From NCBI GenBank assembly GCA_964548075.1, contig CAZJQQ010000005.1, positions 64,252 through 128,251 of the forward strand: a stretch of DNA of 64,000 bases, given 5' to 3'. This DNA is from an uncultured Clostridia bacterium (GTDB lineage: Bacteria; Acidobacteriota; Blastocatellia; UBA7656). Shown here one piece after another: positions 2,189-29,134 of this stretch (position 1 is its first letter; the number at the start of each line of letters is the position of its first letter). The position numbers and the translations under genes are program-made. A model generated the notes under the pieces. The model worked only from the letters and a program-made list of their open reading frames with translations, was not told the origin of the DNA and did no database searches.

Positions 2189-5167
2189 TTAGTGTCCCGC
2201 TTTGCCGCTTGCCGCTGGAATCGCTACTGGCGCTGGCGGCTTGGGATCTTGCTTCTTGTCCTGAACGGCGGGTGCGGGTGTAGCAGCGGCCCGTTGCGGC
2301 GCGTTCGGGTTAGGCATACCTTCTACCGAACTGCGCTGCGGGGCTCTCGGTCCAAGCGTGCCGTCGTTCCTGACAATGCGCGGTGTAAGGAAGAACAGAA
2401 TCTCATCCGAATCGCGGCGCGTGCTTCGTTTCTTGAACAGTTCACCGAGCAGCGGGATGCTCGACAAACCCACTGTCCGATTAATCGAGTGTGACTCGGT
2501 GTCGATGTTGATCCCGCCCATAACCGTCGTCCCGCCGTCGGCAACGAGCACCGTCGATTCAGCCGATTGAGTATTGATACCCGGCGTGCCGTTGTTGAAC
2601 TGTCCTGCCAACGAGAAGTTGACCGTGTTGTTCTCGGCGACGACGTGCATCAGCACCTGTCCGTTCTCTTCGATTATCTGCGGCGTGATCTCGAGCCTCA
2701 GCGCAGCAGTCACGAACGTCGTGGTGATCGTGTTGTTCGAGACGGTCTGCACGGGTATCTGCACGCCGTTGATTATCTCGGCTGTCTTGTTGTCCGTAGT
2801 TGTGACGCGCGGGCTGGCGATGGTTCGAATCTGGCCTTTGGTTTCGGACGCCGATATCGCCATCGAGAGAAGCCCGGTTCCAATCACGCCAGTGGTCAAA
2901 CTCAATACGGTGTTTGCAACTCCCGCTCGAAGCGCGGTGTCAGCAAACGGACCGATAAGGTTCGGTCCCAGCCCCTTTTGCGCTCCCGAATCAGACCCAC
3001 TCCCAGAGCCGCTGCCGGAGCCGCCTCCAGATGAACCTCCGGAGCTGCCACTGCCACCGGGTTGGAGACCTCCGCCAACGACTTGGACTGGCGTTGTTTC
3101 AAACAGGCCGCCGCGACCATTCTTGGCGAAGGCCGTGCCCGCAAGCTCGGTGCCCACGTCGCGAAGGAAGTTTCGGTTCGCGATGACTATTCGGGCTTCG
3201 ATTTCGACCTGAGGCTCGGGACGGTCGAGCTTGGCGATCATGTCCTCAATCACCTGTGTGTACTCAGGCAGGTCGGTGACGATCAAGCTGTTGGTGCGGA
3301 TGTCGACCTCAGTCCGCCCACGCTTGCTCAACCGGCTTTCGACTATCGAACGCAGCGAGCCCTGGCCTGAAGCGCCACCGCCCGCGCCGCTACTCGACCC
3401 GCCGCCCGAGCTTCCGCCGCCCGAGGCGCCGCGCCCCATCGAATTGAGCTGTCCTGAAGCGCGAGCATACTTAAGGTGGATGATCTTGGTAACAAGCGGA
3501 ATCTGGTTGCTCTGTGCCTCTCTTATCGCTAGCTGCTGATCTTCCTCTTCTTTCACTGCGGTCAGCGTGGCTATTCTGATCATGCGACCGTTGCTTTCGC
3601 ACACGGCGCCCAGGCGGTTGGCGCGCAGAACCGATTCCATCACTTGATTCCAGGGTATGTCGGTCACTCGGATATCGACCGGGACAGCGGCGACCGATTT
3701 ATCGATGATAAAGTTGACGCCATATTGTTGCGAGATGAACCGCAGCATGTCGCGGATGTCGACGCCGGCACGCAGGTCGAAGCTTATCATTCCTCCAACA
3801 TAGCCCGAGTCGCAAAACGCGATCTCACTCCGCCTGGGCATCTGCCCGGCAGGGTTCGATTGAGACCGCTGGACATCCGTCGCGCTACGAACGACCGAAG
3901 GCTGCGCCGGCTGGGCCCCGGGCTTACCGGCACTGGGCTGTGACGTTGGCTGGGAAGGCAACGGCAGCGCCCTGTTCGGTTGAGGTGTTACTCGCGGCGG
4001 CGCGCTCTGTCCGTTTGCTTGAGCAAGCAGATTAGCGGTCGCGACTGCGTCCTTGGCAGACTGATCAGCGGGTTTTTTGTTGTCGGTCTTGTTCTCAATG
4101 CGATCGCCGGCAACTCTCACTTCGGGCTTAGCCTGAGGCGTTGCAGCGTCTTTCACCGGGTTAGGGTTCTGCTGCGCTTTCACTTCAACCTTCGGTGCGC
4201 TTTCCTCACGCGAACTGCCGGTGTCTCCTATGGTGATGACGAGCGCTTCGCCTTCGCGAACCACGCGGTATGAGACTTTCGATTTGGTGTCGAGCACTAT
4301 GCGAACTACATTCGGGCTTGGCTGACCTACACGGAAGCGCTCGACCAAACCCGCGCCTACAACGGTAGTCTTGTTGCCGAACGCCGAGCGGACGCCGGTG
4401 ATATCCACGACTATGCGCCACGGGTTTGGCAGCACGAAGTCCTTATACTGCGCCGCGCCGTCGGCATCGACCACGATTCGAACTGCACCGCCGGCTGGTT
4501 CCGAGCGAACCCCACGGATAAGTGTGGCTGGTTTCAAGTCGCTTGGCCTAGGCTTGACTCTCTCGGGCGCGGGCTCCGGGCTTGCTGGCGTTGAACTCTT
4601 CGCAACTGGAGCCGAGTACATCACCACGCCTGGTGCCGCGACGTGCGAATCGCTCTTTGTCTGGCTCGCATGTTTTGCGTCCTTGGCTTCCGTAGGTGCG
4701 TCCTTCTCAATCCTGGCCTTGGCCGGCGTAGGCTTGACGTCTGGGGTTACTTCGAGCACAAGGGTGTTGCCATTAACCGTCGAGCGGTCTCGAGCATCTG
4801 CTCGAACGGTGACTTCGATTCTGGCCACCGCGCGTCCCGCGGTGCCGGCGCCAACGCGCGACTGTCGAACCATGATTGATTCTACGAGCGCGCTCTTGAC
4901 GCTATACGCAGGCGCAAGCCTGGAAGCCTCGCCGCCCGGCAGATCGATGACGATCAGCCGGTCCGTCGGTCTAAACACCGTGTAGAGGGGTGGCGCGCTC
5001 GACTCTATCAGGATGCGCGTGAGCGATCCCTCAGTCTCGTGTTTGAGCGACACCAAAGCGAACGCCTCGGCGCGTGCGCCTGCGTTCAATCCTGCAAACA
5101 CGCTTACATTGCTCACAAGCGCGAGCAGCATCAGTGATACGACAAGCCTCCTAGCGATCATAGCCAT
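2189..5167 (-). CDS. pilQ: type IV pilus secretin PilQ
   Basis: C-terminal secretin domain (…GGINIDTESHSINRTVGLSSIPLLGELFKKRSTRRDSDEILFFLTPRIV), AMIN-like N-terminal region, and signal peptide MAMIARRLVVSLMLLALVSNVSVFA (start chosen at the internal M). It has long Gly/Ser-rich linkers and a Pro/Ala-rich C-terminal tail. Confidence 0.85.
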   Translation of the reverse strand: MAMIARRLVVSLMLLALVSNVSVFAGLNAGARAEAFALVSLKHETEGSLTRILIESSAPPLYTVFRPTDRLIVIDLPGGEASRLAPAYSVKSALVESIMVRQSRVGAGTAGRAVARIEVTVRADARDRSTVNGNTLVLEVTPDVKPTPAKARIEKDAPTEAKDAKHASQTKSDSHVAAPGVVMYSAPVAKSSTPASPEPAPERVKPRPSDLKPATLIRGVRSEPAGGAVRIVVDADGAAQYKDFVLPNPWRIVVDITGVRSAFGNKTTVVGAGLVERFRVGQPSPNVVRIVLDTKSKVSYRVVREGEALVITIGDTGSSREESAPKVEVKAQQNPNPVKDAATPQAKPEVRVAGDRIENKTDNKKPADQSAKDAVATANLLAQANGQSAPPRVTPQPNRALPLPSQPTSQPSAGKPGAQPAQPSVVRSATDVQRSQSNPAGQMPRRSEIAFCDSGYVGGMISFDLRAGVDIRDMLRFISQQYGVNFIIDKSVAAVPVDIRVTDIPWNQVMESVLRANRLGAVCESNGRMIRIATLTAVKEEEDQQLAIREAQSNQIPLVTKIIHLKYARASGQLNSMGRGASGGGSSGGGSSSGAGGGASGQGSLRSIVESRLSKRGRTEVDIRTNSLIVTDLPEYTQVIEDMIAKLDRPEPQVEIEARIVIANRNFLRDVGTELAGTAFAKNGRGGLFETTPVQVVGGGLQPGGSGSSGGSSGGGSGSGSGSGSDSGAQKGLGPNLIGPFADTALRAGVANTVLSLTTGVIGTGLLSMAISASETKGQIRTIASPRVTTTDNKTAEIINGVQIPVQTVSNNTITTTFVTAALRLEITPQIIEENGQVLMHVVAENNTVNFSLAGQFNNGTPGINTQSAESTVLVADGGTTVMGGINIDTESHSINRTVGLSSIPLLGELFKKRSTRRDSDEILFFLTPRIVRNDGTLGPRAPQRSSVEGMPNPNAPQRAAATPAPAVQDKKQDPKPPAPVAIPAASGKAGH

Positions 5168-5356
5168 TGTCTCCCCTCTCATTATCGAAGCTGAAACGGA
5201 CGGGACCTCGACGTTTGTTGTTTGATTCCGACATCCGCTCCACTGCGTTGAATGCATCTTTTCACTCGAATTTTGGACGTGCAGCTCAGCGCCGATTTAT
5301 CGGCCCATGAAACGCTGCAGTGATTATAGTGCGATCCTTTGCTAACACAAGACGAC

Positions 5357-7418: not shown

Positions 7419-8479
7419 TGCGCCACCTCCGCCACTCGGACCGCAAGCCCTACGGCCACGGCCATATTCGGTGAGAGTTCTCTCAGGTACTCGTCGTCGA
7501 ATTTCTTACCGTCGACCTTAATCGAGCGGAATGAGTCGAACCGCTCGACCGGCATCTGGAACTTGTCTGCCAGATACTCGGTCAATTGATAGACCTTCGA
7601 CGAGCCGCCGGCTATCAACATCCGGTCAATCGCCGGCGAGTCAACCGCCGTCGCGCGGAAGAAGTCCAGCGTGCGCTGGATCTCGAGCGCGAGCATTTCA
7701 GACACGCTCTGGATCGCAGGCTGTATCTGCTCCATCGAGACCTGCTGGTCCGGTGTCGCGCCCCGCTTGAGCGCTTCAGCCTGCTCGAATGTGAGATTCA
7801 GTTCCTTTTGAAGAAGATCGGTGTACTGGTTTCCGCCCGCCGAGATGTCGCGCGTGAAGATCGAAGTCGTGCCCCGCACGATGTTAATCGTCATTACCGA
7901 GGCGCCGATGTCCAATAACGCGACCGTCTGATTAAAGGTGGGATTGTAGTTAACCTCGTAAGCGTTCTGGAGCGCGAAGGCGTCCACGTCGACAATCACC
8001 GCCTGCTTGCCGGTCTGCGAGATCACCTGGGTGAACTGTGCGATCTTGTCGCGCTTGCAAGCGACCAGAAGGACGTCCATGTTCTGTCCCGACGCGTCGT
8101 GACCTATGATTTCGTGGTAGAGGTTGACGTCGTTGATGTCAAACGGAATGTACTGCTCGGCCTCCCAATGAATTTGCTCGTCGAGCTCCTCTTCCGGCAT
8201 CGATGGAAGCAATATCTTTTTGACAATGACTGCGTGGCCCGAGAGCGACGTGGCGACCTGATCGGTCTTTATGTTTTGCTCGTTCCAGATTCGACTGATC
8301 GAGTCGCTTACATGATTGAGGTCGATTATGTGTCCGTCAACGATCGTGTCGGATTGAAGGTTCTGATGCGCGATGTGGACCAGCTCGAACCCGCTGCGGG
8401 TGAGCTTTAGCTCGACGGCCTTTAGCGCGCTGGAACCGATGTCGAGTCCAACGACGCTCTTCTTCTTTTTGCCTAGCAT
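7415..8479 (-). CDS. pilM: type IV pilus assembly ATPase-like protein PilM
   Basis: MLGKKKKSVVGLDIGSSALKAVEL... an actin-like (FtsA/MreB fold) PilM signature; first gene of the pilMNOPQ operon. Confidence 0.85.
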   Translation of the reverse strand: MLGKKKKSVVGLDIGSSALKAVELKLTRSGFELVHIAHQNLQSDTIVDGHIIDLNHVSDSISRIWNEQNIKTDQVATSLSGHAVIVKKILLPSMPEEELDEQIHWEAEQYIPFDINDVNLYHEIIGHDASGQNMDVLLVACKRDKIAQFTQVISQTGKQAVIVDVDAFALQNAYEVNYNPTFNQTVALLDIGASVMTINIVRGTTSIFTRDISAGGNQYTDLLQKELNLTFEQAEALKRGATPDQQVSMEQIQPAIQSVSEMLALEIQRTLDFFRATAVDSPAIDRMLIAGGSSKVYQLTEYLADKFQMPVERFDSFRSIKVDGKKFDDEYLRELSPNMAVAVGLAVRVAEVAQ

Positions 8480-20512: not shown

Positions 20513-21337
20513 TTACCGCCGGGGGGGCGTTGAGATCACTCGAAAATGGTATTTGCCGGCCTCTTCGAATTGCCCGCCCTGGTCTAACCCGCTGAGCTTG
20601 ATTTGGTAATCGCCCCTGACAAGTAGCCTGGCGCGGAAACTCAAGCCGACCACCCGTTCATTTGCCAGTGATTCGGGTTTCAGCTCATCCGCCGAGAAGA
20701 CTTCGCGCCCTTCATCCGTTTGAACGACTGCCCGGTAGCTCTGATACTCGTCTCGCGACAATTCAAGGTGTAGCCGCACAGTGGATATGTCGGTTGCAAT
20801 TGTTACCCTCTTGATTTCGCCGCTATCCCTCTCCAGGCCGGGCCTCAAAGTAATCGCAAGCGTAGGCCCTTCCGGCAATTGATCGCGCAGCCATACATTC
20901 CTGACGATCAGCCATGAGGCGCCGAAGAAGACAATTACTAATGCTGCCGCAAGGGAAAGGCCAAGCAGCGGCTTTTGAGCGTGGAGCGAAGCGGGTATGA
21001 AGCGCTTCCAGACGAGAGGTCGCTGGCCGTTGACTGTTGCGGGCTTTACGTCTGCGAGCGGCGCACCGTTGACGTATCTGTGTAGGGCTTCGGCAAAGCT
21101 CAGCCGCTGTCTTCGCTCCGAAACCGCCAGAAAATGTTGATTGAATCTCTCTCGCTCAGGAGCGGACAAGTTGCCGTGAACATAGCTGTCTATTAACTCG
21201 TCCTCTGCAGCTGACAATTCCTCAAGGTACTCGTCATCAATCAGCAGTTGCTTTTCCAGGCGCTCCTGTTCCTCCGGCTCAAGCCACCCCAGCAGGTACC
21301 GCCTCAAACGGTCTTCAGTATCATGGCCATATTCCAT
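20513..21337 (-). CDS. single-pass membrane protein with anti-sigma-factor-like topology
   Basis: 274 aa: an about 110-aa cytoplasmic helical acidic N-domain (LRRYLLGWLEPEEQERLEKQLLIDDEYLEEL...), one TM (LLGLSLAAALVIVFFGASWLIV), and an about 135-aa extracytoplasmic domain. Lies downstream of the ECF-peptidase-CHAT genes. Confidence 0.35.
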   Translation of the reverse strand: MEYGHDTEDRLRRYLLGWLEPEEQERLEKQLLIDDEYLEELSAAEDELIDSYVHGNLSAPERERFNQHFLAVSERRQRLSFAEALHRYVNGAPLADVKPATVNGQRPLVWKRFIPASLHAQKPLLGLSLAAALVIVFFGASWLIVRNVWLRDQLPEGPTLAITLRPGLERDSGEIKRVTIATDISTVRLHLELSRDEYQSYRAVVQTDEGREVFSADELKPESLANERVVGLSFRARLLVRGDYQIKLSGLDQGGQFEEAGKYHFRVISTPPRR

Positions 21338-21553
21338 TAGAAGGACTCTTCCCCACTCGCCTTTGCATCCCTATACATGTATTGCATAGTCTTCAGTTCT
21401 ATTTCAGGCAGTCGATATTGGTCAAGGCAATCTCGCGCGGATCGTATGCAGTCAGAGCCGTTCTATTCCCTCTACCTCCGGCATTTTAATGCCTGAAGCT
21501 GTCAGAGTCTCTTAAGCTAAGTTCCAGGTCTCAGCGCTCCGCAGTTTGCCGGG

Positions 21554-24500
21554 TTAAGCCGCGCGTTGCTTCTTGATCAGGACCCGTCTTGCTGCAAAAA
21601 GACTGACTATCAATATGGCGGTGAATGCCGCGGCCAGTATTGCCAGATAATACTCGCCTCTTTGCGGGCTTTGGCCGGCGTCGATTTCTCCCTTGTACTC
21701 ACCCTGCAAAACAAAAGGCGCCCAGAAATAGGGCGATTGCCACCGCTTCTGTCCCCACATGGTTATCTGCGCCTGGCGGAGCGCTTCTGCTGGAGACTTC
21801 TTCTCAGCAAGCATTTCCTGGTAGAAATGTTTTATCAACTCGGCCGTGGCCTCGTCATCAACCTTCCACAGGCTGGCCATTACGCGCGCCGCGCCTGCAT
21901 ACATGAATCCGCGAGTAAGCCCTATCAGACCTTCGCCTTTGATCGGCTTGCCTAGAGCTGAGTTACAAGCACTGAGCACGACCAAATCGGCCGGAAGATC
22001 TAAGTTGTATATGTCGTTCAGCCGCAGGAACCCATCTTGTGGCTGGCCATCCTTGTCGAATAGGGATAGCACCAGACCGGATAGCTCCGGGGTGTCATTG
22101 TCAAGAATTCCATGGGTAGCGAAATGAATGATGCGGTACCGGCTCAATTCGGGGCCGGTAGCAAGGCCCTTATTGGCCTCGAAGCCGATCGCCTTCAGGC
22201 TCAGCTTGCCGGGCGTTACAGCCATGATCGCGTTCGCCTCATCCCGTGAAGCAAACAAGCGCGGAATGCCTCGGCCGTCGCCCGCAACGCCAACATCGCG
22301 CAAGGCCCGGTGTGCGTCCGCACGGTTCTGCTCATCGGAGTCCTTAGCAATCGTCTCCTTTGCCGCACTCAGGCGCGAATCATCCCTTTCAAAGACCGGA
22401 TCAGCAAACACGGCCAACATGTTTGAAGCAGGCTGACGGCTTTCAATCTTGTTGCGCAATGTCGCCAGCGTCGAGGCAGATGGTTGGTAAGTAACCTGAT
22501 GATCGACCATCAGGGGAACCCGACTATCGTCCGTCGATTGGGGATCCGGCAGGGCGCCGAAAGGTATGTATTGCAACGCGCCGTCAGCGACGACTATCAA
22601 CTGCTTATTTTCGAGTTGCGCGGCGGCCGGGCCAAGTAAAATTTTGCTCAGCGAGGATGCGCTTTGCCAGTACTTCGTCTCAGATTCGTTGAGTCGCGTC
22701 TGGCGTTGTTCAAAGGACTCCCCCTCCACGAACCGGGGGGTAGTTAGCCTGTCCCGCACCTGATTGGCTAAAGCTTCTACCTCCGCGCGGCGTGGGAGCT
22801 CATAACTGGCAATCTCCGATTTAGTCACCGCCCAAAGATAGCTTCTCTCTTCACCCAGTGAATACTCCAGAAGGAGCGCGTTGTCATCCAGGGCTTGCTG
22901 TTGAATTTCTTGCAAGCTCAAGGTGTGTAGTTGCGTCAGCGCGGCATATTGCGGGCTCTTTGATTTGATCTGCCTTTCTACCTCATCGCAGTTTGTCGTG
23001 ATCTCCTGAATCTCTCTAGCCAGAGCTGCCGCGTCTTCTTTATTGTATTGACCGGAGAGCAAACGCATCTGACGTTCGGTTTTACCCTGGAGCGTTCGTT
23101 GGAGCGAGCGCTTGCGTTGCAGCAGCGCCGGATCTACTCCTTGAGAAATGTCAGCGTGAGCTTCCTCCAACATATCCAGCAGCGCTCTTGCCCTCGCTCG
23201 CTCGCTTGTGTCAAGAGCGAGGATATCGAATCCATGGCTTGGGCTGTCTTTGTGCAGTCTCATTAACAAATCGATATACAGTTCGTAATACTGGTGCGCG
23301 GTGGCGAAGTATGTGACCCGCAGATCCCGGCTGGCGACTTTCGTGCGCAGAGATTCTGCAATCGTGACAGCCTCCTCGATCCGCGCGCGTGCTTCTTTGA
23401 GATCGCCCAGGTCGCGCTGGACGCGCGCGATGTTGTAAAGCGTTGAGGACTCACCCGACGGATCAGCCGCTACACGGTTAAGCGGTAGCGCCCGTCTATA
23501 GTAATCGAGCGCCCTTTTCTTTTCGCCCGAACCTTCATAGAGCTTGCCCATGTAGTTGAGTGTGTAAGCCTCATAGCGCTGATCCTGTCCGGCGCGCCCG
23601 AGGTTTAGCGATTGCTTGTAGCAGGCAAGTGCTTCGGCATTGTCGCCTAGGGAGGCATAAATCAGCCCCATGTCGCGAAGGGTCTTTGCCTCTTGGCGCG
23701 GCATTCTAAGGGTGCGGAACAAAGAAAGGGCTGATTGACAATGGTTGAGCGCTACCTGACTCTCTCCTAGTGAATAGTGTGTTTCGCCAATGACCCTCTC
23801 CGCCTCTGCTTCTCCCCATCGGTCATTGGTCTCTTTGAAGAGGCTTATTGCCTGATCATAGTATTTGATCGCCGTGCGCTTCTCACCGACACCATCATAG
23901 ATAGAGCCGAGCCCGCCAAGCACAGTCGCTTTCAGTTTACGAGCATCGATCGATTGCAGAATCTCTAACGCCTTAAGGAACAGATCGAGTGCCTGCTGCT
24001 TCTCGCCTAATTTGGTTTGTAGATTTCCAAGAGCCCTAAGTGCAATAGCCTCGCCATGACGATCATGTGCATCACGGCTCATAGCTAGCGCCCGCTCATA
24101 CGAATCGAGTGCTTTAGCAACGTCGCTTAACTCTATGTACGTATAGCCAAAGCTGACCAGCACCCTGATCTCTCCCTGGCGATCATTCGACTTCTGATAA
24201 AGCTGCATCGCTTCTCGCAAATACCAAAGCGCTTTCTGTAAGTCGCCGAACCCGTAGTAGGCCTCGCCGATGGTATGGAGCGCCGGCGCTTCTCCCGCAA
24301 CGTTGTTCGTGAACCGACTTAATTTCAAAGCGAGGGTGGCAGCTCTTAGGGCCTTCTGGCTATCCCCGAAATCGAAATGAAGATACCCGATGTCATTAAG
24401 AACATCTACCTCTCCACGCCTGTCATTCAGTTTTTGGCTGAGTGAAAGAGCTTGGTTGTAAAAGGTGAGGGCTTTCTGATACTCATCTAACGACTGATAG

Positions 24501-25207
24501 ACTCGTCCTAGACCTCTGAGCATGTAAGCTTCTGCGTGGCGGTCTCTCGCAGCCCGGAAGTAGCCTTGTGCCTTTTCATACATCTGGATGGCTTTATAGT
24601 TTGATTCCGTTCTCCATTCGGCCCTCAATCGCTCACCTTCTGCAAAGGCATTTTCACCAAGAATGGTTTCCCGGTCTCGTGTACTCGCCCGCCTGAGGGC
24701 TTCGAGCGTAACTCGGTAGTGTCCTTTAATTGTCCCCTCTTTCCGCGCGCTCACCTCTAACCGATACTCCCCAGAGACATCAGCAATGACGGATACAGGT
24801 ATCAGTCCGCCCGGATAGCAATTGAATTCAACGTGTTTCTGACGGCTCGGATAATAGAGGGCCACGCTGGCCTCTATTCCCCAGCATTCAATGACCGCAC
24901 GCCCGTACTGGCCTGAGGTCAAAGTGATTTGATAAGAGTGAGTCTGACTCGGCGAGATTTCCCGCTCGATAACCTTGTGCAGCCCGATAAAGGGAGCGTT
25001 GCTCGCTGCATCTACCAACCGACTTGACCCTGCCTTCGAAGGGGCAATCCCTCGCGGCACGACTACCCCGAGGCCAGCAGGAGACACAGCCGATATCCGA
25101 CCGAGCACCAATAGAGCCAGGGCGAACAAAGAAAGGTGTCGAGACAGACCCCTAGTAAGCAAGGGCCCCGTCATCATGAAGCCCCAAGATCTAAAGCGTT
25201 TTTTCAC
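21554..25207 (-). CDS. TPR-repeat CHAT-domain (caspase-like clan CD) protease, membrane anchored
   Basis: 1217 aa with a signal peptide, a PPC-like beta-sandwich, about 12 TPR units, a coiled coil, and a CHAT domain (His in RIIHFATHG, Cys in VVLSACNSALG). C-terminal TM YLAILAAAFTAILIVSLFAARRVLIKK. GTG start overlaps the upstream ORF by 4 nt. Confidence 0.85.
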   Translation of the reverse strand: MKKRFRSWGFMMTGPLLTRGLSRHLSLFALALLVLGRISAVSPAGLGVVVPRGIAPSKAGSSRLVDAASNAPFIGLHKVIEREISPSQTHSYQITLTSGQYGRAVIECWGIEASVALYYPSRQKHVEFNCYPGGLIPVSVIADVSGEYRLEVSARKEGTIKGHYRVTLEALRRASTRDRETILGENAFAEGERLRAEWRTESNYKAIQMYEKAQGYFRAARDRHAEAYMLRGLGRVYQSLDEYQKALTFYNQALSLSQKLNDRRGEVDVLNDIGYLHFDFGDSQKALRAATLALKLSRFTNNVAGEAPALHTIGEAYYGFGDLQKALWYLREAMQLYQKSNDRQGEIRVLVSFGYTYIELSDVAKALDSYERALAMSRDAHDRHGEAIALRALGNLQTKLGEKQQALDLFLKALEILQSIDARKLKATVLGGLGSIYDGVGEKRTAIKYYDQAISLFKETNDRWGEAEAERVIGETHYSLGESQVALNHCQSALSLFRTLRMPRQEAKTLRDMGLIYASLGDNAEALACYKQSLNLGRAGQDQRYEAYTLNYMGKLYEGSGEKKRALDYYRRALPLNRVAADPSGESSTLYNIARVQRDLGDLKEARARIEEAVTIAESLRTKVASRDLRVTYFATAHQYYELYIDLLMRLHKDSPSHGFDILALDTSERARARALLDMLEEAHADISQGVDPALLQRKRSLQRTLQGKTERQMRLLSGQYNKEDAAALAREIQEITTNCDEVERQIKSKSPQYAALTQLHTLSLQEIQQQALDDNALLLEYSLGEERSYLWAVTKSEIASYELPRRAEVEALANQVRDRLTTPRFVEGESFEQRQTRLNESETKYWQSASSLSKILLGPAAAQLENKQLIVVADGALQYIPFGALPDPQSTDDSRVPLMVDHQVTYQPSASTLATLRNKIESRQPASNMLAVFADPVFERDDSRLSAAKETIAKDSDEQNRADAHRALRDVGVAGDGRGIPRLFASRDEANAIMAVTPGKLSLKAIGFEANKGLATGPELSRYRIIHFATHGILDNDTPELSGLVLSLFDKDGQPQDGFLRLNDIYNLDLPADLVVLSACNSALGKPIKGEGLIGLTRGFMYAGAARVMASLWKVDDEATAELIKHFYQEMLAEKKSPAEALRQAQITMWGQKRWQSPYFWAPFVLQGEYKGEIDAGQSPQRGEYYLAILAAAFTAILIVSLFAARRVLIKKQRAA

Positions 25208-25386
25208 AACACGCGCTTTGTAGGGCGGCCCTTAACGCCACGGCAATATTGAGCGAGCACCGTCACGTCTTCGGTCGAGCCAACCCGTTTCATCTCTTTG
25301 AGGTCGGTAAAGCCGTTGTAGTCGAGACCGGCATCGCCGACCATGTATACCATCACCGTCCAAGATCTCTTGTCCACGGGATTCAA
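25204..25386 (-). CDS. 60-aa ORF homologous to the N-terminus of the adjacent C11 peptidase (duplicated fragment; possible gene remnant or small regulator)
   Basis: RSWTVMVYMVGDAGLDYNGFTDLKEMKRVGSTEDVTVLAQY aligns with ADWTVMVYLAGDNNLTDECTYSLTEMKKADSGNRVNIFAQF of the upstream gene. It lacks the catalytic His/Cys and overlaps both neighbours by 4 nt. Confidence 0.4.
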   Translation of the reverse strand: MNPVDKRSWTVMVYMVGDAGLDYNGFTDLKEMKRVGSTEDVTVLAQYCRGVKGRPTKRVL

Positions 25387-26936
25387 GCCTTCCTCGCCGG
25401 AGCTGCCTTCAAGAACAATTTCTCCAACCCTCTAATTACATCTTCCTTCCTCTTTATACAATCATCTGGGAACGCCACGATTGGCGGGTTCCTCATGCTC
25501 TGGACAGGGTTCCCCCCCCTGTCATCAACCTTCCTATCATCAACCTTCCTAAATGTTCTTGCGCCGTTCGGGGTGTTGGTCCCATCTGACGCTCTAAATG
25601 ATCCTTTGCCGGGTGACCTTCCAGCTAAGAGTGCGGTGGCTGCAGCGTTGATAGCGCTAAGACGCTTGGATCCTACCGCGTCAACGGTGCGATCTTGTTT
25701 CCCATTTTCAGATTGCCTGCGCGGCAGACGCGGTTCTCGGCGCGTTTCTTTCGTATAGATCTCAAGGAACTTCGCCCACCCTGAGTCTTTAGCAAAATTG
25801 AGGTTCCCGTAACCTGGAGTGACCTCGGCCCACGGAAAATAGATCGAGACGCCATGGGAATACTGAAAAGCCGGACCGCTGTAGCATGACTTTAGAACGA
25901 AATGCGACTCAATAAACTCCATAACCTTACGGCACGCGTAAGGAACGCCCCCGGCGTCGTAGCGTTCTTGCAAACAGTCACAGAAATCGTAGAGATCAAC
26001 GAACATTTCGCCGTTATACGATTGAGCTTCCCAGTGCGCCAGCACGATAGCATCCTTGAACCTGTCCTTTGTCTTAGCGTCGGTTAGTTCTGCGCTAAGC
26101 GCCCCGGCTAGGTTCTTGACGCGGTTCTTCAGTTTCCTAGCGTCGCGCAGGTTCATCGCCGATGAGTCCGCTGACAAACCGCCCAATGAGTAGTCCGAAT
26201 AAAAATTAACGAACTCTTCGACGATAGCAGTCGCCAACCTCGACTGTACGCTCTGTCCCCGTGCGAGACTCTGAACCTGCGGGGTTGCCTTGGAGAGTTC
26301 GCCTAATCTGTCAAAAATCTGGCGGTAAGGCCAGCCAGCGGCGGGACTGTAACTTTCGCAGCCCACGAGGATCTGGACGTAGTCCCCAAGTTCGTAACAT
26401 ATCTCAGCCATGCTCATCAGGCATACGTCCATTCCGACAATGTCGATCACCAACCCATTCCCGTCTTTGCCATTGTGGTCTTTGTGCACTCTCTCAAAAA
26501 CCTCCTTCAATTTAAGAATCGTGAGAGAGCCGCCCGAACTCTCATCTTTCAACAAGAAGTTCCTTTCGATTCCGCCACCGTGTCCCGCTAGAACTACCAT
26601 ATAGTGATCCGCCGGACATTCGCCGATGCAGAACTTGATAAAGTTAATTAGCGTCTCCGGATCGCCCGTGTCGGTATCAGGGGACGAACCGATGATGTCC
26701 ACCGCCAAGCTTCCGGATTCACCATCTTTCGCGATCTTGTAGCGCTGAGTTGGGATAAGGGGGTCCTTAGGATCGAACTGCGCAAAGATGTTGACGCGAT
26801 TGCCAGAGTCAGCCTTCTTCATTTCAGTAAGGGAATAGGTGCATTCATCTGTAAGGTTGTTGTCCCCGGCAAGGTAAACCATTACCGTCCAATCAGCGTT
26901 CGCTGTTGATGCAGTTGAATTCCGAATCTTTGCCAT
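25383..26936 (-). CDS. clostripain-like cysteine peptidase (family C11, clan CD), cytoplasmic
   Basis: WTVMVYLAGDNNL N-terminal strand, catalytic His in VVLAGHGGG and Cys in GMDVCLMS (His-Gly / D-x-C-L-M dyad). No signal peptide; basic, disordered C-terminal tail containing a KVDDRKVDDR tandem repeat. Confidence 0.75.
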   Translation of the reverse strand: MAKIRNSTASTANADWTVMVYLAGDNNLTDECTYSLTEMKKADSGNRVNIFAQFDPKDPLIPTQRYKIAKDGESGSLAVDIIGSSPDTDTGDPETLINFIKFCIGECPADHYMVVLAGHGGGIERNFLLKDESSGGSLTILKLKEVFERVHKDHNGKDGNGLVIDIVGMDVCLMSMAEICYELGDYVQILVGCESYSPAAGWPYRQIFDRLGELSKATPQVQSLARGQSVQSRLATAIVEEFVNFYSDYSLGGLSADSSAMNLRDARKLKNRVKNLAGALSAELTDAKTKDRFKDAIVLAHWEAQSYNGEMFVDLYDFCDCLQERYDAGGVPYACRKVMEFIESHFVLKSCYSGPAFQYSHGVSIYFPWAEVTPGYGNLNFAKDSGWAKFLEIYTKETRREPRLPRRQSENGKQDRTVDAVGSKRLSAINAAATALLAGRSPGKGSFRASDGTNTPNGARTFRKVDDRKVDDRGGNPVQSMRNPPIVAFPDDCIKRKEDVIRGLEKLFLKAAPARKA

Positions 26937-27051
26937 CTTAAGTTCTCCTATCCCTTAGCCAATATCCGCGTGATCCCATCGTGCGAGTACATCTACCCGA
27001 TCCCATATCTATACTTCTCTCAACTGACATGGGAGTTCTCTACAATACGTT

Positions 27052-27609
27052 TCACCCAACAGGTGCCTGATTCAGGCAGCTCTCAACGCACAATTGCAAG
27101 CTCGCTCTTATTCGGTGCATACGTATCCTCAACGCATTCGGCGCTATCCCGAGCCGATCAGCAAGCTCCCTTCTGTGATCTATCTTCACTCGTTTCTCTT
27201 CCTGGTAATACTCCAAAACCAACTGCCGATTCTCAGCCGGGAGCCTGTCCATGCATACCTCCAGGCATTCGTACTCTCGTTCCTTCTGTTGAGGGGTGTC
27301 AGGCGCTGGCGTGGGGAGCGGCGGAGGACCCTTCTTCACGTGCTCGAGGTGAACGTTACGCGCCACGCCGTAAAAATAAAGCGCCGGATCGCCGATGTAT
27401 GAATCCGCCAGCTCTTGCATCTTCCTGATGACCCGGTTGATCGTCTCATCTGCGAGCTCTTCGCTTACAGAGCACCCGCGGCAGGCGAAGATCCTTATGA
27501 GCCTTCGGCGAATATCTTCGTACTTCTTTCCGGCTAGCTCGCGGTCAGGGTCGAGCCACCTGAGAAAATTGTCGAAGGCATCCTGAGTAATGTCCCACGG
27601 TCTCTTCAT
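27052..27609 (-). CDS. ECF-type RNA polymerase sigma factor (sigma-70 regions 2 and 4)
   Basis: Internal start MKRPWDITQDAFDNFLRWL...; region 2 (ADETINRVIRKMQEL...YFYGVARNVHLEH) and region 4 HTH (RQLVLEYYQEEKRVKIDHRRELADRLGIAPNALRIRMHRIR). The N-terminal 139 codons of the track ORF lie in the divergent intergenic region and look non-coding. Confidence 0.75.
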   Translation of the reverse strand: MKRPWDITQDAFDNFLRWLDPDRELAGKKYEDIRRRLIRIFACRGCSVSEELADETINRVIRKMQELADSYIGDPALYFYGVARNVHLEHVKKGPPPLPTPAPDTPQQKEREYECLEVCMDRLPAENRQLVLEYYQEEKRVKIDHRRELADRLGIAPNALRIRMHRIRASLQLCVESCLNQAPVG

Positions 27610-27961
27610 CGAATTGCCAGCCGTTCGAGTTTTTGCTTGGTAAACCGCCTGAATGTGGCAGGGAGTTTGGTCCTGCCTAAGCCCAGCGACTTTCGCCGAG
27701 AGGTCACTCAACACAACCTGGTCGCGGCTGAATGTATCACGACCCACCGGCCACGGCAAAACCTTTTTTGTAGCATATACCCTAGCCCTGAGCTTCGCCC
27801 GAGGAGGGAGAATGTGCAATCCGGTTTGCCACGGTGTATGGCGCTTTACCGACAATCTGCGCAACAGGAATCTGACCGACCAAAGCGAAAGCGCCAGTTT
27901 CCCATCTCGCTTGCTTGGGGTACTCTTCTTGAAACCAACCAAACTCAAGGGGGACCGTTCA

Positions 27962-29134
27962 GTGGCGAAGACTATTGGCATCTTGACTGGAGGCGGCGAT
28001 GTCCCGGGCTTGAATCCCTGTATCAAAGCCGTCGTCTACCGCGCGATCGATGAGGGCTACGAAGTGCTCGGCATTCGCCGCGGTTGGGGCGGCTTGCTGC
28101 ACTTTAACCCTTTGGAGCCCGAGAGCTTCTCGAAGCATTTCATGCCCCTGGACAAGCAAGCGGTTCGCACCATCGATCGCACCGGCGGAACGATCTTGCA
28201 TACCAGCCGCACTAATCCTTCAAGAGTGAAGCTAAAGGACGAGCCCGACTTCCTGCGAGACCCCGCGCACCCCAAGGCCGAAGAAGCAGACCCGCGACCC
28301 CGGGACTTCACACCTCACGTGCTGAAAAACCTCGAAGACCTCGGCATCGAGATACTCGTCCCGATCGGCGGCGACGACACACTCAGCTACGGCGAGCGTC
28401 TCCATCGCGAAGGAGTCGAAGTCATCGCCATACCGAAGACAATGGACAACGACGTGTTCGGCACCGACTATTGCGTCGGCTTCAGCACGGCGGTCACTCG
28501 AAGCGTGCAGTTCATTCATCAGCTTCGAACCAGCAGCGGCTCGCACGAGCGCATCGCAGTCGTCGAGTTGTTCGGACGCAACAGCGGCGAAACCAGCTTG
28601 ATCAGCTCTTACCTGGCGGGAGTCGATCGCGCGCTGATTTCTGAAGTGCCGTTCGATCCTGAACGGCTGGCAGAGCTGGTGATGCAGGATAAGCGAACCA
28701 ACCCGAGCAACTACGCGATGGTGACCATCAGCGAAGGCGCGCACATGGTAGGCGGCAAAGTGATCGAGTACGGCGAGGCTGATGCCTACGGCCATCGCAA
28801 GCTCGGCGGCATCGGCTTGATAGTAGGCGAAGCGCTCAAGAAGCTTACTGGCGAAGACATCGTTTATCAGCAGATCGCTTATTTGATGCGCTCGGGAGCG
28901 CCGGACGCGGTCGATCTGATGGTGTCGGTGAACTACGCGCACATGGCGATGGACCTGATCCTCGAAGGCGTGAGCGGGCGCATGTGTGCGTTGCGAGAAG
29001 GAACCTACACGCACGTTCCTATCAGCACGATCACCAGCGGCTTGAAGCGAGTCGACGTTGACGAGCTCTATGACGCCGAACAGTATCTGCCCAAGGTTCG
29101 AAGGGTGCTGGGCAAGCCGATGTTCCTGTACTGA
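27962..29134 (+). CDS. pfp: pyrophosphate-dependent 6-phosphofructokinase
   Basis: GTG start after RBS aagggggac; motifs [24 protein letters not shown] (Asp in the GGDG position) and PKTMDNDV (Lys) favour PPi-dependence. Confidence 0.8.

Follow-up and report, generated by a model that had tools for sequence, protein, structure and literature searches.

A short ORF within a C11 peptidase/TPR-CHAT/ECF-sigma module of Acidobacteriota is probably a young 5' remnant of a second, distinct C11 gene

Results

Genes of the module

The window analyzed here, a 64-kb stretch of genomic DNA, carries an operon-like row of genes on its minus strand. It begins with an ECF-type sigma factor gene (27052-27747, minus strand; 231 aa as called on contig L001), recognized by matches to TIGR02937 and Sigma70_r4_2 that all fall under the curated cut-offs. 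Next comes the gene of an intact 517-aa clostripain-family peptidase (25383-26936, minus strand; Pfam PF03415, E 2e-34), which we call C11-A, and then a mini ORF of 60 codons with a TTG start and a TGA stop (25204-25386, minus strand), referred to below as the stub. The TPR-CHAT gene follows (21554-25207, minus strand). Its product combines TPR repeats with a CHAT domain (Pfam, E 2e-69) and a signal-peptide-like segment at the N-terminus; it has 1217 aa when read from GTG 25207 but more likely 1207 aa, read from ATG 25177. The row ends with a putative anti-sigma factor of 274 aa (20513-21337, minus strand), which has a zf-HC2-like N-terminus and weak zf-HC2 and anti-sigma matches. The anti-sigma gene adjoins the sigma factor gene in about 40 related loci.

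C11-A contains both residues of the catalytic dyad, His119 (in GHGGG) and Cys172 (in MDVCLMS), and these are invariant in alignment A2, which represents the C11-A subfamily. Its predicted structure (mean pLDDT 66 for the whole model) has an alpha/beta core of moderate confidence, and the part homologous to the stub comprises beta1 (residues 14-23), alpha1 (29-41), beta2 (48-55) and the loop before beta3. The C-terminal tail of this family is predicted with low confidence (25400-25700 in the window, minus strand). Many C11-A homologues carry MXKDX-like pentapeptide repeats in this tail, and one of them, P0008, matches TIGR02953 at 33 bits, under the cut-off of 41. The tail encoded in the window reads RKVDD-RKVDD and includes a 15-nt direct repeat (25522-25549); a C8 run at 25512-25519, which is a G8 homopolymer on the C11-A coding strand, could slip.

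In the module, PADLOC detected a generic TPR protein and otherwise no defense-system match. An Rfam scan of the whole 64-kb window returned no RNA family, and a promoter and terminator scan near the stub found nothing on the minus strand that exceeded shuffle expectation. Opposite the stub and the final part of C11-A runs an antisense ORF of 169 codons (25249-25758, plus strand), which matched no family and is probably spurious.

The stub and its overlaps with neighboring genes

The initial annotation of this DNA had pointed to a small ORF with similarity to the N-terminus of the upstream C11 enzyme and with 4-nt overlaps on both sides, and such an ORF does exist. BLASTP aligned stub residues 9-58 with C11-A residues 16-65 without gaps (20 of 50 residues identical, 40%; E 1e-8), and tblastn across the whole window found the stub to be the only other C11-like stretch (E 1e-4). 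Its TTG (25386-25384) overlaps the C11-A stop TGA (25385-25383) in TTGA, and its own TGA (25206-25204) overlaps the GTG (25207-25205) that opens the TPR-CHAT frame in GTGA. Gene callers assigned it different lengths: 60 aa by NCBI (P0272), 57 aa (P0001), and 49 and 46 aa on other contigs. An assembly artifact can be dismissed, because four independent metagenome contigs (L001-L003 and L169) are 99.96-100% identical across the region.

A Shine-Dalgarno-like sequence, GAGGAAGG (25387-25398, minus strand), can be read 4 nt upstream of the TTG, within the extended tail of C11-A. Its counterpart, GGTGAGGA, is kept at locus L004, where it lies in the spacer past the C11-A stop. In both L004 and L005 the C11-A gene ends in LFLK followed by TAA. 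The window has GCA in place of this TAA, and the frame runs for eight more codons to TGA. The TTGA overlap is thus a recent by-product of the C11-A stop codon having been lost in this lineage.

The GTGA overlap depends on where TPR-CHAT translation begins. ATG 25177 is more likely the true start than GTG 25207, because L005 has no in-frame start upstream of the residues matching MMT/VMT, because the CHAT gene of L004 is called at the ATG equivalent to 25177, and because the JGI call for CHAT on L169 (99.96% identical) is shorter still, with 1154 aa. A start at ATG 25177 would leave 27 nt between the stub stop and CHAT. Translational coupling of the stub to its neighbors, which the initial annotation had considered, is accordingly doubtful: the TTGA is a by-product of stop-codon loss and GTG 25207 is probably not the CHAT start. 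L005 conserves the nucleotides that would encode KRFxxWGF ahead of ATG 25177, even though they cannot be translated at that locus; this points to a conserved leader or ribosome-binding element upstream of this ATG.

The stub is assigned to a C11 subfamily different from that of its neighbor

Exhaustive phmmer search of 1.84 billion proteins (representatives) with the stub gave 312 matches at E <= 1e-3. The best non-self match was P0122 (E 5e-17), an intact 411-aa Peptidase_C11 with 83% identity over stub residues 12-58, and after it came hundreds of N-termini of 400-450-aa C11 proteins at 50-60%. A word-index protein search with the 60-aa query recovered only the stub itself. We use the name C11-B for a distinct C11 subfamily of about 410 aa, defined by alignment A3 (about 400-450 aa). 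C11-B proteins match PF03415 at E 4e-35 to 1e-43 and the structure 6MZO at E 9e-11, and share only about 35% identity with C11-A over the full length.

The similarity of the stub to the N-terminal beta1-alpha1-beta2 of these enzymes is significant, and it is thus C11 by descent. Its profile score is 87.4 bits against C11-B and 36.4 bits against C11-A. Over a 47-aa core, the stub shares 79-83% identity with 16 intact C11-B proteins, compared to 36% with C11-A, and at the nucleotide level positions 25213-25362 are 79-83% identical to the intact C11-B genes of L008 and L088-L091. By sequence similarity, then, the stub is assigned to C11-B and is not a copy of its neighbor C11-A. This revises the proposal of a tandem C11 duplication with a truncated second copy. 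The ORF is indeed the front end of a second C11-family gene, but that gene was not a duplicate of the upstream one, and because the stub is 83% identical to C11-B and 40% to C11-A, the tandem pair would have consisted of two old paralogues, as found intact at L052.

A recent tandem duplicate of C11-A, cut by the arrival of TPR-CHAT, would fit the adjacency of the two frames and the 40% identity to the N-terminus of the neighbor. It is nevertheless hardly credible: the stub is twice as similar to C11-B (83% identity, with a profile advantage of 51 bits), so that the subfamily assignment refutes such a duplicate, and the succession of C11-A and TPR-CHAT is ancestral in about 50 loci. For the same reason, the suggestion that acquisition of TPR-CHAT severed the second copy does not hold, since C11-A followed by TPR-CHAT is the ancestral and near-universal order in these related loci. 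CHAT did not arrive here by insertion; what took place was probably a deletion.

Breakpoint and missing parts

The segment derived from C11-B, delimited by nucleotide and profile matches, spans 25213-25386 (minus strand) and consists of the native start codon and codons 2-58, which encode beta1-alpha1-beta2 and the next loop. The start codon of the stub lies eight codons ahead of the conserved Trp, just as it does in intact C11-B genes, and the eight N-terminal codons are weakly similar to those of the intact genes. The match to C11-B stops exactly at 25213, past the codons for RPTKR. Intact C11-B genes continue there with TAC TAT CTG, encoding YYL(T/R)KD..., and the window instead reads GTG TTG TGA (25204-25212, minus strand), a junction tail not from C11-B, to which the stub owes its last two codons and its stop. 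From GTGAAA onward the window is again collinear with the CHAT leader of L005, and the deletion breakpoint is between 25213 and 25207. Hence the C11 similarity, which had been described as running right up to the stop, does so as far as R58 (25213), but the last two codons and the stop are not C11. A rearrangement junction inside the module, as anticipated, is present, and it lies at the 3' end of the stub (25207-25213).

In P0122 the C11-B dyad is formed by His101 (in WGHG) and Cys185 (in MDSCVMS). Aligned with this protein, the stub reaches as far as residue 47, and both catalytic residues are encoded downstream of the breakpoint. It therefore lacks the His-Cys dyad expected of a Peptidase C11 enzyme. 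It is also without about 85% of the fold, holding about 14% of the domain, and intact genes have about 350 further codons. With only beta1-alpha1-beta2 of a nine-stranded fold and neither His nor Cys, the stub cannot be a peptidase. Pfam (E <= 0.1) and NCBIfam searches with the 60-aa product reported no family, the product scoring under the Pfam gathering score. Partial coverage of intact homologues together with an identifiable breakpoint is what characterizes a gene remnant, and the stub shows both.

Two other readings of the 3' end were discarded. The stub is not a frameshifted full-length gene, as C11 homology is found in no frame beyond its stop. A programmed frameshift into CHAT is also rejected: the A-run lies past the stop, no slippery site precedes it, and the resulting fusion would bury the CHAT signal peptide.

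Gene order in related loci

About 60 related loci from Acidobacteriota, chiefly MAGs of Pyrinomonadaceae, usually show the order C11-A, TPR-CHAT, sigma, anti-sigma. The closest C11-A orthologues are at L004 (87% identical) and L005/L006 (69%). In all three, C11-A leads directly to TPR-CHAT across spacers of about 120-380 nt, and the stub is absent. L004 and the window remain collinear up to and including the C11-A end, a short spacer containing GGTGAGGA, and the 12 nt CTTGAATCCCGT with which the stub begins; beyond these the two sequences part. Neither profile search nor local alignment revealed any further C11-B relic in the spacers of L004 and L005 (shuffle p 0.35), and a seeming relic of a C11-B C-terminus in L005, KFVLANYL, is unsupported. 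The stub is thus not conserved at the same position, as expected of a gene remnant, with 12 nt in L004 and nothing in L005 or L006.

The intact tandem of C11 paralogues that the initial annotation advised looking for in relatives was found once, at L052. This locus has a C11-A-like gene (611 aa), 38 nt, a C11-B gene (410 aa, TTG start) whose product is 68% identical to the stub, TPR-CHAT, sigma and anti-sigma. It is the only one of the approximately 60 related genome loci with the intact tandem, and C11-B is absent at that position in about 50 others. C11-B also appears elsewhere around the module. At L109 a C11-B-type gene stands immediately before CHAT and replaces C11-A, and at L032 one lies past the anti-sigma gene. 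L051 carries a frameshifted C11-B pseudogene (approximately 5000-5336, minus strand) 1.6 kb upstream of C11-A, with the N-terminal 30 residues in one frame, residues 71-93 in another and the remainder missing; it is an independent loss of C11-B near the module. P0159 is a C11-B with an internal deletion. P0133, a 147-aa C11-B-like protein with an unrelated tail, comes from a 911-nt contig without usable context.

The closest intact relatives of the stub (L008, L088-L092 and L170) stand alone in unrelated contexts instead of forming a tandem with C11-A. A TTGACA-like element of their own precedes them, and small ORFs trail them: behind each stand-alone C11-B gene closely related to the stub come one or two such ORFs in tandem, of 63-73 aa, which overlap or abut it. 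Their positions include L089:7302-7520 and 7489-7686, L008:1520-1582 and L170:4789-4980, with others at L088, L090, L091 and L092, and they share the pattern MSIKK(L/I)xRKR..SNLT(V/I)R...MGxDKMS..RGPGxIG. Neither Pfam nor NCBIfam gives a match for these small ORFs, and the window lacks them; they are possible C11-B substrates or precursor peptides.

Gene order also varies in other respects. The window (20513-28026), L005 and L007 have sigma, C11-A and CHAT in this order, with the anti-sigma gene past CHAT seen in the window (the L005 and L007 contigs end earlier), whereas about 40 other loci (compared among L009-L070) have C11-A, CHAT, sigma and anti-sigma. From this difference it follows that the sigma gene moved within the module in the clade of the window. 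At L031, L041 and L042 two C11/TPR-CHAT units lie in succession on the same strand, indicating that the module duplicates as a unit; the upstream C11 of L042 has weak, fragmented matches, and at L031 a divergent sigma/anti-sigma pair separates the two units.

Age of the truncation

Against the C11-B profile, the 50-aa core of the stub scores 82.0 bits, compared to 82.2-82.4 bits for its intact relatives and a family range of 76.7-96.8. All nine family-invariant positions before the breakpoint are retained. The frame is open, and none of the signs of relaxed constraint (stops, frameshifts, random replacements) is seen in the stub. In neutral simulations, 0.05 substitutions per site lowered the score to about 70 bits and gave a stop in 23% of copies, and 0.1 substitutions per site lowered it to about 58 bits, with a stop in 37%. 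The neutral time available to the stub is about 0.05 substitutions per site or less, far under the dS between the window and L004, which ranges from 0.23 (C11-A) to 0.62 (CHAT). The truncation therefore looks recent. It had been foreseen that lack of conservation in relatives combined with accumulated stops or frameshifts would mark a decaying pseudogene; the stub is missing in the nearest relatives, but it shows no such decay.

The stub differs from its nearest intact relatives by eight residues. With eight random replacements placed on the closest intact sequence, the score was 63 +/- 4.7 bits, and not one of 1000 simulations got to 82. The observed differences thus accumulated while C11-type constraint was acting, and the simplest setting for this is a full-length gene. 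Conservative replacements (BLOSUM62 >= 0) account for six of the eight, compared to an expected fraction of 0.53, which is not significant. An accelerated branch leading to the stub was seen against the stand-alone clade alone, and was dismissed because with wider outgroups most of the "unique" residues proved to be family-typical. An undrifted stub would also fit purifying selection on a mini-protein. All copies are at least 99.96% identical (L001-L003 100%, L169 99.957%), making within-population polymorphism uninformative about selection.

The age of the stub bears on whether a full-length C11-B gene ever stood at this position. It could be that illegitimate recombination copied the 5' piece of a stand-alone C11-B gene into the spacer between C11-A and CHAT, giving a functionless fragment from the outset. 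The closest intact relatives (79-84% identical) are indeed stand-alone genes in unrelated contexts, and the tandem arrangement is rare. However, L004 has the first 12 nt at the same position, placing the 5' junction before the split of the window and L004 lineages, and a piece that old should have drifted, which the stub has not. It also starts exactly at the native start codon, an unlikely outcome for a random breakpoint. In addition, full-length proteins in a set of 5.8 billion reach at most 83% identity to the stub, and the close clade has no member from an NCBI genome source, which is where the window's own assembly comes from. Such a copying event is thus unlikely. A complete ancestral C11-B between C11-A and TPR-CHAT is favored instead, because L004 shares the 12 nt and yet a fragment of that age should be visibly degraded.

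Discussion

The observations are best accounted for by a deletion inside the C11/TPR-CHAT/ECF-sigma module that spared, as a young remnant, the 5' end of a C11-B gene, and we regard this as probable. The ancestor would have had a full-length C11-B between C11-A and TPR-CHAT, in an operon with the ECF sigma and anti-sigma genes. A deletion would then have taken C11-B from codon 59 onward, plus the spacer ahead of CHAT, so that PTKR now runs into the CHAT leader and the frame ends two codons later at a TGA. The L004 lineage would have lost nearly all of C11-B, and the lineage of the window would have lost codons 59 to the end recently. Some observations sit less comfortably with a deletion remnant. 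The closest intact relatives of the stub are stand-alone genes, the tandem copy at L052 is only 68% identical to it, the tandem occurs in only one of about 60 loci, the stretch shared with L004 is short (12 nt), and the first eight codons resemble those of intact C11-B genes only weakly. Moreover, an intact and undrifted ORF would also fit selection on a mini-protein.

Given its native ribosome-binding region and start codon, the stub may be translated. One could imagine a retained mini-protein, acting as a decoy or as a beta-strand competitor for C11-A or CHAT, or an ORF that relays ribosomes through the two 4-nt overlaps. The intact frame with its native start codon and Shine-Dalgarno-like GAGGAAGG, the TTGA and GTGA overlaps, and the retention of all family-invariant residues with no sign of drift speak for this possibility. 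Nevertheless, the nearest relatives manage without the stub, with spacers of 120-380 nt, the TTGA derives from a lineage-specific C11-A stop loss, and the CHAT start is probably ATG 25177, 27 nt past the stub stop. Neither the word-index search nor the exhaustive phmmer search of 1.84 billion proteins found a conserved family of similar mini-proteins. The 90% cluster of the stub holds only P0001 (57 aa) and P0272 (60 aa), both from the same locus, and other short matches are contig-end pieces, frameshifts, internal deletions and adapter chimeras with unrelated tails. The stub is thus not a short ORF conserved across diverged lineages with dN/dS below 1. The earlier idea of a decoy or pro-segment-like regulator finds no support here either, as the 58 residues are core beta1-alpha1-beta2 and not a pro-segment. 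We consider a retained mini-protein or relay ORF quite improbable. That the stub is retained for the sake of its translation, as a relay from C11-A to TPR-CHAT or as a beta-alpha-beta peptide that inserts into or titrates C11-A or a C11-B from another locus, is a long shot; if true, the peptide would tune protease activation in a module controlled by a sigma/anti-sigma pair. Most likely the stub is without function.

The stub is homologous to the first 58 or so residues of the clostripain family (MEROPS C11, PF03415), for which structures of PmC11 (3UWS, 4YEC) and of a zymogen C11 protease (6MZO, 6N9J) have been solved. It keeps the features of this fold up to its end: the motif WTVMVYMxGD, a helix and the strand xxAQF. 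Unlike MEROPS C11 enzymes, it stops before the catalytic His (WGHG) and Cys (MDxCxMS), and is a fragment rather than a member enzyme. It is similar to unitary pseudogene fragments produced by intra-operon deletions in having homology only at the 5' side, a breakpoint followed by a fortuitous stop, and a distribution confined to one lineage, with neighboring lineages showing a bigger deletion (L004) or a frameshifted copy (L051). It differs from typical remnants in showing no detectable decay and in having kept its start codon and ribosome-binding region.

Known systems close to the surrounding module include Csx29, a TPR-CHAT protease of type III-E CRISPR (PMC10028731), and the CHAT-containing anti-sigma DdvA with DdvS of Myxococcus (PMC11506125). 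The module of the window resembles such TPR-CHAT/ECF systems in pairing a TPR-CHAT caspase-like protein with an ECF-type sigma and an anti-sigma factor. It is different in that no CRISPR or CBASS genes are nearby, and in that its CHAT protein stands on its own, is apparently secreted and has a C11 peptidase as partner. No described system includes the stub.

The stub is a feature of an ordinary kind, and its importance is mostly local. In annotations, the 60-aa "hypothetical protein" would be better flagged as a C11 (clostripain-family) gene fragment than listed among genes of unknown function. The module around it, made up of a C11 peptidase, a secreted TPR-CHAT protein, an ECF sigma factor and an anti-sigma factor, is widespread and uncharacterized in Acidobacteriota (Pyrinomonadaceae/Blastocatellia). 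C11-B enters and leaves this module repeatedly: it is intact at L052, replaces C11-A at L109, lies downstream at L032, is decayed at L051 and is reduced to the stub in the window. The small ORFs of about 65-73 aa behind every stand-alone C11-B, as possible substrates of these peptidases, may be a more interesting lead than the stub.
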